The notes below the pieces were generated by a model. That model had not been told where the DNA came from and did not search any database. It saw only the letters and a list, made by a program, of their open reading frames with translations. A stretch of 64,000 bases of DNA from Candidatus Aenigmatarchaeota archaeon (GTDB lineage: Archaea; Aenigmatarchaeota; Aenigmatarchaeia; CG10238-14; SpSt-28), in contig JAWBAK010000001.1 in assembly GCA_038997165.1 (NCBI GenBank), positions 472,917-536,916 of the forward strand. The letters are read 5' to 3'. Position numbers and translations under genes: made by a program. Positions 14,391-18,835 of this stretch are shown piece after piece; the first letter of the stretch is position 1; each line of letters begins with the position of its first letter.

Positions 14391-14813
14391 ATGCCAGGAG
14401 AATTTGCTGCAAGAAAATTGATAAAGAATAGAAAAAAATTTAGATGGAGTAAGTATGATTATAAATCTAGAGTTTTAGGTTTATGGAAAATGGATCCATT
14501 AGAAGGAGCACCACAAGCAAGAGGAATTGTAATTGAAAAGAGAGTTGTTGAACAAAAAAGACCCCATTCTGGATTAATAAAATGTGTAAGAGTTAAATTG
14601 ATAAAAAATGGAAGAGAATTGACAGCTTTTGTTCCAAAAAGTGGAAGTATTAATTTTATTAATGAGCATGATGAAGTAATTGTTGAACCATTAGGAGGAG
14701 CGCAAAAAGGTCCAATTGGAAGTATGTGGGGAATAAGATATAAAGTTATCGCAGTTAATGGTGTATCTTTGGATGCAATAAGAAAAGGTAAAAAGCAGAA
14801 GCCAGCAAGATGA
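14391..14813 (+). CDS. rps12: 30S ribosomal protein uS12
   Basis: [39 protein letters not shown]. Confidence 0.97.
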
Positions 14814-15406
14814 GCGAACTAAAATTATTCGGTAAATGGGATTGGAACGTTGAAGTAAAAGATATTGGATTAAAAAGATATATAAATCTAAAACCTTGTA
14901 TTATTCCTAGAACATATGGAAGATATAGTCAAATAAGATTTGGTAAAGCAAATATGAATATAGTAGAAAGATTAATTACTAAGATGATGGTACCTGGACA
15001 TAAGGGTAAAAAACATTTAGTTTCTTCAGCTAGATGTGTAGGAAAAACAGAAAAAATTATAAAAATAGTAAAAGAAGTTTTTGAAATAATTGAGAAAAAA
15101 ACTAAGAAAAATCCTATAGAAGTATTGGTAAGAGCTATAGAAAATGCTGCACCATTAGAAGAGCCAATATCTTATCAAGTTGGAGGAATTATTGCTAGAA
15201 CTGCTGTTATAGTTTCTCCGCAAAGAAGAGTTGATTTAGCGTTAAGAAATATTGTAAATTCTTGTTATAGAAGAAAAGTTGGTTTTACTAAAATGTCTGA
15301 ACTTTTAGCAGAAGAAATAATTGCTGCTGCTAATAACGATATTTCGAAAAGTTATGCATTAAAAGAGAAAGAAAGAATAGAAAAAGAAGCTGAAGGTGCT
15401 AAATAA
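14810..15406 (+). CDS. rps7: 30S ribosomal protein uS7
   Basis: [36 protein letters not shown]. Confidence 0.97.
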
Positions 15407-16196
15407 TTTTTTCTAATATTTCTCTTTGTTTTTCAGAAACTTTTTTAACAATATTTTCTAAATCTCTTGTATAGTGAATTATTAATTCTTTTCCTACTCT
15501 TCCCTGTAGCAAATCGATTTCATGCGATCTTAAATTATCAAAGAAACTTTCGAACGCCCTTCTAAAATCATATGGTTTAATATTATATTTTTTTAAATTT
15601 TTCCAATAACTTAGTTTTGATTTATATGCAATTTTTATATATTCAATGGCTTTTTCGTTTAAAATTGTTATAAAAACTTTTTTTGTCTTTCTTATTAATA
15701 ATAGTTCGAAAACATAGGCATCATATATTTTTTGTTTTTTAATTTTTTCAAAATTTTTTATAAAATAAATTAGTTCATGTGTTCTTAATCCTGTTAATAG
15801 ATGTAAAATTGTAGTTGCTTTTAATTTTTTTGGAAAATATTTAATTTTTTCAAGCAGTTCATCTTTATTAATTTTTTCTTCGAGTATTTTTGGAATTTTT
15901 GGTATATACCAGCTAATGTTTGCTTTTTTTCTTAGTTCATTAAATTTTTTATAATAAATATCTACATCATTTAATGCATCTAAGAATTTTGAATATGCTG
16001 CTAATGCCTGTAAAATATGTTTTTTTAAAGTTTTTTTATTTTCAGTAATTTTCTTAAATTCTATTGAAAAATCAACAGCATTTAAATTTAGTAAATATGA
16101 GTATTTTTTTGCATAGTTAACTAAATTGTTAATATGAGTTTTATTAGTGCATTTTAAACTTAGAAATTCTTTAAATTTGTTCCAATCTATTTGCAT
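15399..16196 (-). CDS. Tyrosine recombinase / SSV1-like archaeal integrase
   Basis: Catalytic-type motifs in order: TGLRTHE, RKTK, YDFRR, DLLQGR, IHY. Confidence 0.8.
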   Translation of the reverse strand: MQIDWNKFKEFLSLKCTNKTHINNLVNYAKKYSYLLNLNAVDFSIEFKKITENKKTLKKHILQALAAYSKFLDALNDVDIYYKKFNELRKKANISWYIPKIPKILEEKINKDELLEKIKYFPKKLKATTILHLLTGLRTHELIYFIKNFEKIKKQKIYDAYVFELLLIRKTKKVFITILNEKAIEYIKIAYKSKLSYWKNLKKYNIKPYDFRRAFESFFDNLRSHEIDLLQGRVGKELIIHYTRDLENIVKKVSEKQREILEKII

Positions 16197-16228
16197 AAAT
16201 TTTTAATTTTTATTTTCTAAAAAATATA

Positions 16229-16474
16229 ATGGAAGAGAGAATATTAAGAATAAACTTAAGAAAAGAATTGATTAAAAAACCAACATGGAATAGAAAAAAA
16301 TTATTAATGTTAAGATTAAAAGAAAAATTAAAAAGGATTTTAAAAGTTGATGAAATTAAAATAGGTAAAAATTTAAACGAATTTATTCAAAGACATAGCC
16401 CGAAAAAATTAACTTATAAATTTACTTTAAGAATTGAAAAAGAAGATAATATAGCAAAGGTTGATCTTGCATGA
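16229..16474 (+). CDS. rpl31e: 50S ribosomal protein eL31 (divergent)
   Basis: ERILRINLR...PTWNR...IKIGKNLNEFI; directly upstream of aIF6 as usual. Confidence 0.8.
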   Translation: MEERILRINLRKELIKKPTWNRKKLLMLRLKEKLKRILKVDEIKIGKNLNEFIQRHSPKKLTYKFTLRIEKEDNIAKVDLA

Positions 16475-17139
16475 AATACGAGCTTATAAATTATAATGGC
16501 GATTCAAATATTGGTATTTTTTTAAGAACATCCGAAGACATAACTTTAGTTCCTAAAAATATTGATAAAAAAATTACTGAAAAAATAGAAAAAATTCTTA
16601 AAACTGAAATTATTGAATGTAAAATTTGGGATTCATATTTACTTGGAATATTTTCGTGTTTAAATTCTAATGGATTAATTTTACCAAAAACAATTTTTGA
16701 TAATGAATTTAATTTTTTTAAATCGTTAGATTTAAATATTGGAATTATTGATTGCGATTATAATGCTATTGGAAACTTAATCCTTTGTAATGATTATTCT
16801 GCAATTGTAAGTCCATTAATTGATAAAGAAAGCTTAAAAATAATTAGAGATGTTTTAAATGTTGAGGTTATTGTTAGAAAAATAATGAAAAATAATTTGG
16901 TTGGTTCTATGGCTTATGTAACTAATAAGGGAATTTTATTTAATAGAAATATAAATGAGGATGAAGCAAAAGAAATTAGTGAAATATTTAAAGTGAAAAG
17001 ATATGGTGCAGGAAGTGTAAATATGGGAAATATTTATGTTTCTGTTGGTTTAATTGCAAATTCTAAAGGAATAATATTTGGAGAAAAAACTAGTCCTTAT
17101 GAAATTCAAATAGCATTAGAAGCTTTTGATTTTATTTAG
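16471..17139 (+). CDS. eif6: Translation initiation factor 6 (aIF6)
   Basis: GDSNIGIF, NSNG, GNLILCND, GSVNMG...ANSKG, TSPYEI. Confidence 0.95.
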   Translation: MKYELINYNGDSNIGIFLRTSEDITLVPKNIDKKITEKIEKILKTEIIECKIWDSYLLGIFSCLNSNGLILPKTIFDNEFNFFKSLDLNIGIIDCDYNAIGNLILCNDYSAIVSPLIDKESLKIIRDVLNVEVIVRKIMKNNLVGSMAYVTNKGILFNRNINEDEAKEISEIFKVKRYGAGSVNMGNIYVSVGLIANSKGIIFGEKTSPYEIQIALEAFDFI

Positions 17140-17152
17140 TATATGTATATTT

Positions 17153-17170
17153 GAGGAAAAAATATATATT
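17153..17170 (+). promoter_or_regulatory. Putative BRE-TATA promoter of the pre-16S transcript
   Basis: Purine-rich GAGGAAAA followed by TATATATT ~25 nt upstream of the structured leader at ~17190. Confidence 0.55.
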
Positions 17171-17187
17171 AGTGATTTAAAATATAT

Positions 17188-17267
17188 TATAGGGCTTGTT
17201 CCGTCATTGTTTCGAGAGAGCATTTGCTCTATGAAGATGAGAAACAATATCCTACAAGCCTATAGTA
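17188..17267 (+). ncRNA. Structured leader hairpin, candidate H/ACA-like sRNA
   Basis: Basal stem GGCTTGT/ACAAGCC, internal loop, stem ATTGTTTC/GAAACAAT, tandem GA and ATGAAGA (K-turn-like), ATA after the stem. Confidence 0.5.
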
Positions 17268-17280
17268 TCAGATGCCTTAA

Positions 17281-18835
17281 TGGCATCTGGTGATAGAGAA
17301 AAAGTTGTAGTGGTAATTCTGGCTGAACCCGCCAGAGGGGGCGGCTATCCGGGTCAGGCTAAGCCATGCGAGTCGTGAGGGGAAAGCCCTCGGCGCACTG
17401 CTGAGTAATACCACCTCAACCTACCCTACGGTGGGGGATAATCCCGGGAAACTGGGGCTAATACCCCATAGGAGAGGGATTCTGGAAGGACCCTCTCCGA
17501 AAGCTATTAGCAGCTTAAAGCTGCTAATAGCGCCGTAGGATGGGAGGTGGTCCTATCAGGTAGTTGGGGGTGTAACGGACCCCCAAGCCTAAGACGGGTA
17601 GGGGCCGTGAGAGCGGGAGCCCCCAGATGGGCTCTGAGACATGAGCCCAGGGCCTACGGGCCGCAGCAGGCGCGAAACCTTCCCAATGCGCTAACGCGCG
17701 AGGAGGTGACCCGGAGTGCCCTGGCTCTGCCAGGGCTTTTGCCCAGTGTTAGAAGGCTGGGCGAATAAGGGGTGGGCAAGACCGGTGGCAGCCGCCACGG
17801 TAATACCGGCGCCCCAAGTCGACCCCGCGATTATTGGGCCTAAAGCGCCCGTAGCCAGGCTGGTAAGTCTCTCGTTAAATCCCATAGTAAACTATGGGAT
17901 TGCGAGAGATACTGCCAGCCTTGGGGCCGGGAGAGGCCGGCAGTACTCCCAGGGTAGGGGTGAAATCCTTTAATCCTGGGGGGACTACCAGTGGCGAAGG
18001 CGGCCGGCTGGAACGGTCCCGACGGTGAGGGGCGAAAGCTGGGGGAGCAAAAGGGATTAGATACCCCTGTAGTCCCAGCCGTAAACGTTGCCCGCTAGCT
18101 GTCGGAGTGGCTTAGAGCCACTCCGGTGGCGAAGGGAAGCCGTTAAGCGGGCCGCCTGGGGAGTACGCCCGAAAGGGTGAAACTTAAGGGTATTGGCGGG
18201 GGGGCACACAAGGGGTGGGTTGTGCGGTTTAATTGGATTCGACACCGGGAATCTTACCCGGGGAGACGGCAGGATGAAGGTCAGGCTGAAGACCTTACCA
18301 GACGAGCCGAGAGGTGGTGCATGGCTACCGTCAGCTCGTACCGTGAGGCGTGCCGTTAAGTCGGTTAACGAGCGAGACCCGTGCCCCATGTTGCTACTCG
18401 CAGCTTCGGCTGCGAGGCACTCATGGGGGACTGCCCGCGATAAGCGGGAGGAAGGTACGGGCGACGGTAAGTCCGTATGCCCCGAATCCCCGGGGCCACA
18501 CGCGCAACACAATGGGCGCTACAAAGGGATGCCACCCCGAAAGGGGGAGCAAATCCCCTAAAAGCGCCCTTAGTTCGGATCGAGGGCTGTAACTCGCCCT
18601 CGTGAAGCCGGAATCCCTAGTAGGCGGGGTTTAGCAAACCTCGCCGAATACGTCCCTGCCCCTTGCTCACACTGCCCGTCACGCCAACCGAGTGGAGCTC
18701 CTGTGAGGGCCGAAAGGCTCGAACAGGAGCTCCGCGAGGGGGGCGAAGTCGTCACAAGGTAGCCGTGCGGGAACGTGCGGCTGGATCACTCAGCTAGAAT
18801 TACCACTACAACTTCTAATCTATCACCAGATGCCA
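17281..18835 (+). repeat. 16S processing stem: inverted repeats 17281-17326 / 18790-18835 with canonical BHB
   Basis: TGGCATCTGGTGATAG-AGAA-[AAA]-GTTGTAGTGGTAATTCTGGCTGA pairs with TCAGCTAGAATTACCACTACAAC-TTCT-[AAT]-CTATCACCAGATGCCA. Confidence 0.92.
17316..18792 (+). rRNA. rrs: 16S rRNA (unlinked from 23S; 3' end approximate)
   Basis: GC-rich ~1.48 kb; CAGCCGCC.CGGTAATAC, ATTAGATACCC, AACGAGCGAGACCC, AAGTCGT.ACAAGGTAGCC, GGATCAC. Confidence 0.98.

Follow-up and report, generated by a model that had tools for sequence, protein, structure and literature searches.

Across three DPANN phyla, adenine at position 527 of the 16S rRNA is nearly confined to genomes whose ribosomal protein uS12 lacks the aspartate (Asp) of its second decoding loop. 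The DNA analysed here, 64,000 nucleotides from a Candidatus Aenigmatarchaeota archaeon (hereafter the window), carries both states. Their distribution leads us to lean towards stepwise co-evolution, in which uS12 was probably remodelled first and opened epistatic paths to changes in helix 18 of the rRNA, rather than towards the origin of one compensated pair. On the same sequence comparisons, we infer that the altered uS12 states are ancient and common to whole phyla and that the rRNA change came later and repeatedly.

The uS12 and 16S rRNA genes of the window

The uS12 gene (14391-14813, + strand) is an ORF of 140 aa that scores 117.8 bits (cut-off 22.3) with the Pfam profile PF00164 (Ribosom_S12_S23), over profile positions 3-109 of 110, and it was the single match when the genome was searched with this profile. 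Its neighbourhood is as expected, with Rpb2/Rpb1 RNA polymerase ORFs (8351-13727) and an L7Ae-family ORF (13711-13971) upstream and uS7 (14810-15406) directly downstream, an order of uS12 before uS7 that is shared with canonical archaea and eukaryotes. Compared with canonical archaeal and eukaryotic uS12 and helix 18 (for example PDB 4v6u, 6skf, 9e71), the protein belongs to the same family and has the same length (E-values 1e-46 to 1e-48), and it shares the EHDE core, the Pro and Ser of the first loop and the Gly residues that frame the second; it differs by His, Ile, Ser and Trp in place of the Asn and Arg of PNSAxR and the Asp and Pro of GDIPG, and the rRNA loop differs by carrying G518 and A527 rather than C and G. 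The first decoding loop, P58-H59-S60-G61-L-I63-K64 (14562-14582, + strand), departs from the canonical PNSA(I/M)RK by Asn to His, Ala to Gly and Arg to Ile, with Pro and Ser unchanged. The sequence-only reading had the KRPHSGLIK motif right and its coordinates (14559-14580) a few bases off, since coordinate arithmetic places K56-R-P58-H59-S60-G61-L-I63-K64 at 14556-14582. The Ala to Gly change is unremarkable, because solved uS12 sequences with PNSG also have Gly. The second decoding loop, G110-S111-M112-W113-G114-I-R-Y117, lies exactly where that reading had placed GSMWGIRY (14718-14741, + strand) and departs from GD(I/L)PGVR(F/Y) by Asp to Ser and Pro to Trp. PNSA and PGVR are described as universally conserved in PMC4224418; in the window, residues 58-61 read PHSG, and S111-M-W113-G-I-R stands in place of PGVR and the preceding Asp (E. 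coli D88). Asn and Asp are both present in solved archaeal uS12 (PNSG, PNAA or PNSA; GDIPG; 4 alignments among 139 matches), and in the Asp-keeping phylum considered below, 79 of 98 genomes share the canonical first-loop forms found in solved structures.

The 16S rRNA gene (17316-18794, + strand; G+C 61.5% vs 25.6% for the window) is the sole copy and matches Rfam RF01959 with 1428.3 bits over model positions 1-1478 of 1478. E. coli positions are those of our own alignment, anchored on what we take to be the universal 515F site. In the cmscan alignment to RF01959, the 530 loop (E. coli 515-533; GTGGCAGCCGCCACGGTAA; 17785-17803, + strand) has an A at 17797, aligned to an upper-case consensus G and corresponding to E. 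coli G527, as had been claimed. The loop also carries C518G (G at 17788, consensus c), which accompanies A527 in the window and had been overlooked. The C at 17792 (522) and the A at 17797 are flagged by cmscan as a non-standard pair at the place of E. coli C522-G527, and the loop thus departs from the consensus, with its G521-C528 and C522-G527 pairs, by C.A at 522:527 and G at 518. G530 (17800) is retained, as are A1492 and A1493 (18746-18747). Other conserved sites that differ are 13, 17, 20, 915, 918, 1394, 1400 and 1499. In the 907-926 stretch (18180-18199, + strand), consensus A is replaced by G at position 915 (18188) and by U at position 918 (18191), and the change at 918 is matched by A for consensus U at position 17 (17327). 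In the 1392-1406 stretch (18665-18679, + strand), U replaces consensus A at position 1394 (18667) and consensus C at position 1400 (18673); position 1499 (18753) is C for consensus A. Substitutions are therefore present at uS12 45, 49, 88 and 90 and at 16S 518, 527 and 915 of the uS12-h18-h27 junction.

Laboratory and clinical mutants of bacterial rpsL and rrs that alter accuracy or the response to streptomycin fall, for rrs, in the 530 loop and the 912-915 region. These mutants, together with loss of m7G527 methylation (PMC7550191), involve the same positions as the window: 527, 915 and the P90 loop. Unlike them, the changes in the window are natural, combined, archaeal, and fixed across genera or whole phyla; the organism is known from assemblies only, and nothing points to drug selection. 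Structural papers agree with the claim that the uS12 Asn and Asp adjoin G527: the N7-methyl of m7G527 occupies a pocket next to Asp89 that uS12 helps to form (PMC7550191), D88 bonds N45 and R49 through its carboxylate (PMC4224418), and Pro44 lies ~5 A from m7G527 (PMC5041475). In the ribosomes considered here, the replaced uS12 residues and rRNA positions may be in direct contact and may influence decoding accuracy or the action of streptomycin-type drugs.

Distribution in Aenigmatarchaeota

We examined 371 genomes of the phylum, 344 of which matched the pattern for the second-loop Asp position (D-site). Among the matches listed (about 121 genomes, hand translation), Asp was found only in G031 and G125, and another 25 genomes whose DNA was fetched and read all lacked it, giving 2 of about 146 genomes read. 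All genomes read had P[H/S/A/T/C/Y]SG as their first loop, and PHSG with GSMWG extends to further orders of the phylum (families f8 and f10-f14). Across the Aenigmatarchaeota, PHSG with GSMWG is the common state and probably the ancestral one.

The 530-loop pattern matched 150 of the 371 genomes and revealed A527 in G000, G001, G004, G005, G009, G011, G020, G026 and G021, and further in G123, G031, G140, G079, G080, G082, G210, G248 and G251; G033 and G039 also have A527 according to an alignment spanning an intron. A527 thus occurs in nested lineages of six families, and most genomes of the phylum retain G527. Since most Asp-less Aenigmatarchaeota have G527, the rRNA change is not an obligatory consequence of losing Asp, and since G031 combines Asp (GDTPG) with A527, the two are not incompatible. 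The 16S tree of the order is compatible with one early gain of A527 followed by reversals, or with several gains.

Both loci (uS12 first loop and 530 loop) were read in 83 genomes, counted raw per genome with related genomes non-independent. His was found with C518 and G527 in 25, with G518 and G527 in eight, and with G518 and A527 in four, which constitute the window's genus; the 33 genomes with G527 all combine PHSG with GSMWG. Ser accompanied C518 and G527 in nine genomes and C518 and A527 in 12, the latter spread across eight genera and six families. Ala occurred with A524 in 16 genomes and with G524 in three, and Thr and Cys were found in four and two genomes, respectively. Given C518, A527 was present in 12 of 21 Ser genomes vs 0 of 50 non-Ser genomes, and A524 occurred exclusively with Ala (16/16), in 10 genera of two families. 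Similarly, within family f31, G251 has Ser and A527, and G245 and G247 have His and G527.

Distribution in Micrarchaeota

The D-site pattern matched 142 of the 151 Micrarchaeota genomes sampled, and none of the 142 had Asp. Most residues of this phylum and of the control phylum below were hand-translated from strings of 68-80 bases; eight of the Micrarchaeota hand readings were checked by machine. The D-site was Ser in 49 of 49 genomes with G527, and their first loop had His in 44 of 44. Among genomes with A527, which resemble one block of related genomes, the D-site (read in 51) was Cys in 31, Ser in 14, His in three, Ala in two and Arg in one, and the first loop had His (40) or Asn (6) with G518 and Ser (4/4) with C518. 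In G527 genomes both loop-tip residues are constant, and in A527 genomes they vary. Asn at its old position was found only in A527 genomes, the opposite of the proposed change of Asn to His with G to A. Three extra loci sought for the rule that C518 with A527 implies Ser came from genomes already counted, and no uS12 was recovered in G647 and G648, which were sought for the same rule.

The Micrarchaeota 530 loop GTGGCAGCCGCCACGGTAATAC, identical to that of the window, was present in 48 of the 109 genomes with a loop match. The Asp-less uS12 of this phylum (for example L109/G371, G372, G374, G375) is like that of the window in having PHSG (or PNSG) and a replaced Asp, although the phylum is another one and the 16S piece is only ~72% identical. 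It also differs in keeping the second-loop Pro (G[S/C/A]IPG), where the window has Trp, and in the variety of residues at the Asp position.

An Asp-keeping phylum and a wider scan for A527

As a control, we used a third DPANN phylum, the Nanoarchaeota-like phylum of G533 (111 genomes). Asp was present in 91 of its 92 matched genomes, which rules out a loss of Asp throughout DPANN. G527 was found in all 45 genomes with a 530 loop except G533, and the 38 genomes with both loci comprised 37 with Asp and G527 and one with Ser and A527. The latter, G533 (Nanopusillaceae), has PYSG, GSIPG, U522 and A527, and its close relative G595 has PNSG, GDIPG, C522 and G527; both have G518 and G531. The Asn position (n = 98) is occupied by His in six genomes, Cys in four, Ser in one and Tyr in one, and His stands with Asp and G527 in G617, G572, G587 and G636. 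The first description of Nanoarchaeum reportedly noted substitutions in 'universal' primer sites of its 16S rRNA, which, like that of the window, is a DPANN rRNA departing from universal sequences. Within the literature searched, the nanoarchaeal work concerns primers and phylogeny, with no link to uS12.

A scan for A527 loops with one genome per species matched at least 120 stretches, and the 80 that were fetched were Micrarchaeota-type (66), Aenigmatarchaeota-type (12), of an ambiguous DPANN type (1) and bacterial (1). A527 in bacteria was largely discounted, given that three of four 'bacterial' records carry Micrarchaeota-type archaeal contigs and two of those bins also contain archaeal uS12; the fourth is a 16S copy of an insect endosymbiont whose uS12 is canonical, and G-to-A changes are numerous around its A527. 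Taken together, G518 with A527 was accompanied by His, Asn or Tyr at the uS12 Asn position and by Ser in 0 of 50 genomes, and C518 with A527 by Ser alone (16/16, Aenigmatarchaeota and Micrarchaeota).

Proposed stepwise co-evolution and its alternatives

Under stepwise co-evolution, an old, phylum-wide layer would consist of a uS12 without the three residues that in canonical ribosomes tie the decoding loops together beside G527, with E. coli N45, R49 and D88 replaced by His59, Ile63 and Ser111 and Pro90 by Trp113; the first-loop Pro and Ser, which act directly in decoding, are retained. A younger, genus-specific layer would comprise C518 to G and G527 to A in helix 18, with C522-G527 left unpaired. 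The first layer may have been permissive, in that positions 527, 524 and 518 would be free to change without the Asp lining the G527 pocket, and the residue at uS12 position 45 would decide which rRNA state is tolerated, with His, Asn or Tyr permitting G518 and A527, Ser permitting C518 and A527, and Ala permitting A524. An extended version, plausible though somewhat less likely than not, is that two or three DPANN lineages dismantled the Asn-Arg-Asp network linking the uS12 decoding loops to G527, that 530-loop substitutions otherwise forbidden thereby became possible, and that each tolerated rRNA state is matched to one residue at position 45, which would amount to a small natural protein-RNA 'code' at the accuracy centre.

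It is rather unlikely, though a serious contender, that no functional coupling exists and that tiny-genome DPANN, evolving fast under weak selection, let these sites drift independently, with shared ancestry producing the co-occurrence. Many other conserved 16S positions are altered in the same gene and order (in the 16S alignment, A915G and A1499C are common to the whole order and C1400U occurs in 6 of 14 sequences with data), so that a general loosening of constraint fits these extra changes as well as specific coupling does. The clustering of Micrarchaeota A527 genomes among the matches, the combination of Asp with A527 in G031, and the G-to-A changes around the sole bacterial A527, among the matches listed, point the same way. 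Yet the Asp-keeping phylum also consists of small-genome DPANN and varies at the Asn position, and 37 of its 37 Asp genomes have G527. Independent drift also sits poorly with the same partitions of Ser in two phyla, with the restriction of A524 to Ala across 10 genera, and with Micrarchaeota loop tips that vary only alongside A527.

The sequence-only reading had proposed one matched pair that arose in the window's lineage, with Asn to His and Asp to Ser making up for G527A or G527A making up for them. This is highly improbable and already contradicted by the distribution, although all three positions are altered in the window and adjoin in solved bacterial ribosomes (the three structural papers above). 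PHSG and GSMWG are phylum-wide and coexist with G527 in many families, which is incompatible with a joint change; His and Ser stand with G527 in 44 Micrarchaeota genomes; His stands with Asp and G527 in four control-phylum genomes; and all 12 Aenigmatarchaeota A527 genomes read outside the window's genus have Ser, never His. What survives of the proposed pair is the near-confinement of A527 to Asp-less uS12, and the protein changes appear to be older than the lineage. The suggested tabulation of position 527 against uS12 residues yielded the association of A527 with loss of Asp in three phyla, and the genome counts ruled out a strict covariation of His with A527.

An artefact of assembly or binning can practically be discounted, and so can a non-functional copy of the rRNA or of uS12. 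Many surveyed genomes are metagenome bins and two mis-binned 16S contigs were noticed in related bins (G018, G533:C35), but the two genes lie 2.5 kb apart on a single contig (0.5-Mb scale) of a genome that is 94.5% complete and holds one copy of each, the 16S is full length (1428 bits), the uS12 frame is open (117.8 bits), and identical states recur in three other species of the genus (G001, G004, G005) that likewise carry the two genes on a single contig, which argues against assembly error and pseudogenes alike. Both genes also share a contig in G000, G009, G010, G012, G031, G371, G372, G374 and G375.

Implications

Outside supplements and subscription journals, the parts of the DPANN, Aenigmarchaeota and Micrarchaeota literature that were searched contain no report of a link between uS12 and the 530 loop, and the portions seen of the literature on Micrarchaeota mismatches to 515F do not name these positions. 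Because the G518/A527 and A524 variants lie inside the 515F primer site, these lineages would be under-counted in amplicon surveys. The decoding machinery is usually regarded as having invariant parts in Asp88, PNSA and PGVR (uS12) and in G527 and C518 (16S rRNA), and phyla without the Asp whose rRNA changes follow rules may serve as a natural experiment in how correct codon-anticodon pairing is sensed by the 30S shoulder. If the position-45 'code' holds, these ribosomes would close on cognate tRNA unlike all studied ribosomes, and they would probably ignore drugs that bind this pocket.

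uS12 and 16S rRNA genes of the window

The window's genome (652 kb, 94.5% complete) carries one uS12 gene and one 16S rRNA gene. The uS12 ORF (14391-14813, + strand, 140 aa; Pfam PF00164, 117.8 bits) has His59 at the Asn position of the first conserved loop (PHSG for PNSA) and Ser111 at the Asp position of the second (GSMWG for GDIPG); the Arg of PNSAxR is lost too, with Ile63 in its place. Solved archaeal uS12 proteins had PNS[G/A] or PNAA together with GDIPG in four alignments, and thus the unusual losses in the window are Asn, Asp and Pro, the Ala-to-Gly change being ordinary. 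The direct readers Pro58 and Ser60 are kept, as are G530, A1492 and A1493 of the 16S rRNA, and the residues behind Pro58 and Ser60 are substituted. The 16S rRNA gene (17316-18794, + strand; full-length match to RF01959, 1428.3 bits) carries the 530 loop GTGGCAGCCGCCACGGTAA from 17785. In the Rfam alignment, 17797 (E. coli position 527; E. coli numbering of all 16S sites follows our own alignment) is A against an upper-case consensus G, and 17792 C with 17797 A, equivalent to E. coli C522-G527, is marked as a non-standard pair. The window sequence and this alignment bore out the substitutions at the Asn and Asp positions and the A527 described in a sequence-only reading. A second loop change was found at 17788 (E. 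coli 518), G against consensus c.

The N7-methyl group of m7G527 in E. coli lies in a pocket formed with uS12, beside Asp89, and losing it acts in synergy with uS12 resistance mutations (excerpts of PMC7550191). In simulations, the carboxylate of D88 was stably hydrogen-bonded with N45 and R49, a network joining the PNSA and PGVR loops (excerpts of PMC4224418). Ser46 of uS12 binds A1492, Pro44 holds the third codon nucleotide with G530 and C518, and m7G527 lies about 5 A from Pro44 (excerpts of PMC5041475); the amino group of A1492 is close enough to C518 and to the uS12 Ser for bonding (excerpts of PMC5270523). Proximity of the uS12 residues to 518 and 527 is therefore plausible from these papers. 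The sequence-only reading had treated the uS12 residues and 527 as neighbours, which agrees with the adjacency described for bacterial ribosomes in the first three excerpted papers, but it had overlooked C518G.

The 16S 3' end (18783-18800) reads GGATCACTCAGC where GGATCACCTCC was expected, and hence lacks the CCUCC anti-Shine-Dalgarno. Its flanks (17296-17315 and 18795-18815) are complementary and resemble a processing stem, a tRNA-Leu(GAG) gene lies downstream (18903-18988, + strand), and no 23S rRNA was found within the 64-kb window, so that the rRNA genes appear unlinked. The G+C content of the 16S gene (61.5%, versus 25.6% for the window) suggests a thermophile. Nearby, a single 1425-aa ORF (8351-12628, + strand) is a B'-A' fusion of RNA polymerase subunits, in which the C-terminal half of subunit B (Rpb2 domains 4-7) is continuous with subunit A' (Rpb1 domains 1-5). 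Between uS7 and an 81-aa ORF (16229-16474, + strand) lies a 265-aa ORF (15399-16196, - strand) without a Pfam match; the 81-aa ORF has a sub-threshold HicB match (20.6 bits, cut-off 21) and is followed by eIF6.

Distribution in Aenigmatarchaeota

Of the 120 best relatives of the window's uS12, every one with a name bore the label Candidatus Aenigmatarchaeota or Aenigmarchaeota. We scanned 371 Aenigmatarchaeota genomes using three DNA patterns that yield directly readable matches. The second uS12 loop was matched in 344 of them; among the matches listed (about 121 genomes, hand translation), Asp (GDTPG) occurred only in genomes G031 and G125, and the other loops were G[S/T][M/Q/L][W/V/A/H/P]G. 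The DNA of 112 genomes bore out this picture and gave P[H/S/A/T/C/Y]SG as the first loop. The window's combination, PHSG with GSMWG, extended beyond the window's own order (to families f8 and f10-f14), a spread that, read from sequence, most simply makes it ancestral in Aenigmatarchaeota. In G031 and G125 (uS12 loci L067 and L068, genus g15), Asp and Pro are back in the second loop with PSSG still in the first; their genus mates have GSMWG or GSMAG.

The 530 loop was matched in 150 of the 371 genomes and was mostly canonical. G018 was excluded from these counts, as its foreign 16S clusters with the outgroup in the 16S tree and shares its loop with G533. G518 with A527 was confined, among the 150 matches, to the window's genus (G000, the window's genome, with G001, G004 and G005). 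C518 with A527 occurred in G009, G011, G020, G026, G021, G123, G031, G140, G079, G080, G082, G210, G248 and G251, A524 in 20 genomes, and G518 alone in at least nine. An intron-like insertion lies within the loop, directly 3' of ...GCCGCC, in the 16S loci L056 (G033), L055 (G039), L052 (G032) and L058/L059 (G034); alignment across it gave A527 in G033 and G039 and G527 in G032 and G034. In family f8, G518 accompanied a GSQHG second loop (5/5: G042, G046, G052, G053, G054) and C518 accompanied GSM[W/H/P]G (7/7: G041, G050, G055-G058, G061), which may be a further protein-RNA association or mere shared ancestry.

Several 16S contigs were mis-binned or contaminant (L051 of G018, L115 at G533:C35, L099, L110 and L160). 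G018 carries a 16S of the G533 type, one contig of the Nanopusillaceae-titled bin matches the window's 16S at 99.5% identity, and three bacteria-titled records contain archaeal contigs with Micrarchaeota-type 16S.

Associations between uS12 and the 530 loop

Both loci were read in 83 Aenigmatarchaeota genomes, and the associations are raw genome counts, many of them hand-read. On the C518 background, A527 was found in 12 of the 21 genomes with Ser at the Asn position (8 genera, 6 families) and in none of the 50 carrying another residue there (His, Ala, Thr or Cys). His occurred with A527 in four genomes, all with G518. Both rules recur in Micrarchaeota. A524 was restricted to Ala genomes (16/16, 10 genera). 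Family f31 shows the contrast internally: G245 and G247 have His and G527, whereas G251 has Ser and A527.

Beyond the phylum, a global scan for the A527 loop (one genome per species) matched at least 120 stretches. The 80 loci examined comprised 66 of Micrarchaeota type, 12 of Aenigmatarchaeota type, one ambiguous DPANN and one bacterial, the last an insect endosymbiont 16S copy with many nearby G-to-A changes. The loop was obtained from 109 of 151 sampled Micrarchaeota genomes: 48 had the window's loop exactly, one more had G518 with A527, and the rest had C518 with A527 (4), G518 with G527 (28), A518 with G527 (4) or the canonical loop (24). Asp was absent from the second uS12 loop in all 142 matched Micrarchaeota genomes. 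With G527, the Asp position was Ser (49/49) and the Asn position His (44/44); with A527, the Asp position was Cys (31), Ser (14), Ala (2), His (3) or Arg (1), and the Asn position was His (40) or Asn (6) with G518 and Ser with C518 (4/4). These residues are hand readings, eight of them verified by machine translation, and the counts include G413 (flagged unpublished), without which three drop by one. At locus L209 (G373:C1:351456-351785), on a closed Micrarchaeota chromosome, the search output shows uS12 interrupted by two in-frame stops, TAG and TAA.

The Asp-keeping control was the phylum holding the Nanopusillaceae-titled bin G533 (111 genomes). Asp was kept in 91 of 92 matched genomes, and the first loop (n = 98) was PNSA in 79 and PNSG in 7, with His (6), Cys (4), Ser (1) or Tyr (1) at the Asn position. 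G527 was present in all 45 genomes with a matched loop except G533, and Asp with G527 in 37 of the 38 read at both loci. G533 has PYSG, GSIPG, U522 and A527; its close relative G595 has PNSG, GDIPG, C522 and G527. For the remaining DPANN phyla and for non-DPANN archaea, coverage came only from the global scan, solved structures and the Rfam consensus.

Tabulating 527 against uS12 thus upheld part of the suggested coupling: A527 is nearly confined to Asp-less uS12 (exceptions, G031 and the endosymbiont copy), but Asp-less groups mostly keep G527. Because A527 is nested within Asp-less, mostly G527-keeping groups in both large phyla, we infer that the uS12 change probably preceded G527A. In the 16S tree of the window's order, the window's genus (A527) branches first, followed by an unresolved set of f3 (A), g4 (A), g2 (G) and f2 with f5 (G; the A527 genus g15 nested within), a layout by which 527 changed at least three times within this order alone.

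Interpretation

Our results tilt modestly towards uS12 and helix 18 having co-evolved stepwise and epistatically. As the main rival, unlinked drift among symbionts that evolve fast is a serious possibility that we nevertheless rate as rather doubtful. It is favoured by changes at further conserved sites of the same 16S gene, where upper-case Rfam consensus positions depart at 17323, 17327, 17330, 18188, 18191, 18667, 18673 and 18753 (E. coli 13, 17, 20, 915, 918, 1394, 1400 and 1499). U13C, U20C and A915G are widely shared within the window's order and A1499C is order-wide; U17A with A918U is a compensated swap of the window's genus only; the others are A1394U and C1400U, the latter also in G011 and G035. 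A compensated pair private to this lineage, the strict form of the coupling first suggested for the window, is improbable, for PHSG with GSMWG occurs with G527 in 25 C518 and 8 G518 genomes. An artefact is highly improbable. Organism mixing is possible in metagenome bins, but the key genomes carry uS12 and 16S on one contig (G000, G001, G004, G005, G009, G010, G012, G031, G371, G372, G374 and G375).

We found no report of DPANN phyla without these uS12 residues, nor of a tie to 530-loop variants, in a search of openly available articles; the related literature was primer-coverage and decoding-centre structural work. Under stepwise co-evolution, the decoding centre of the window's archaeon would comprise two layers: an ancient Asp-less uS12 common to whole phyla and, upon it, a younger helix-18 pair, C518G with G527A, one of a few recurring combinations.
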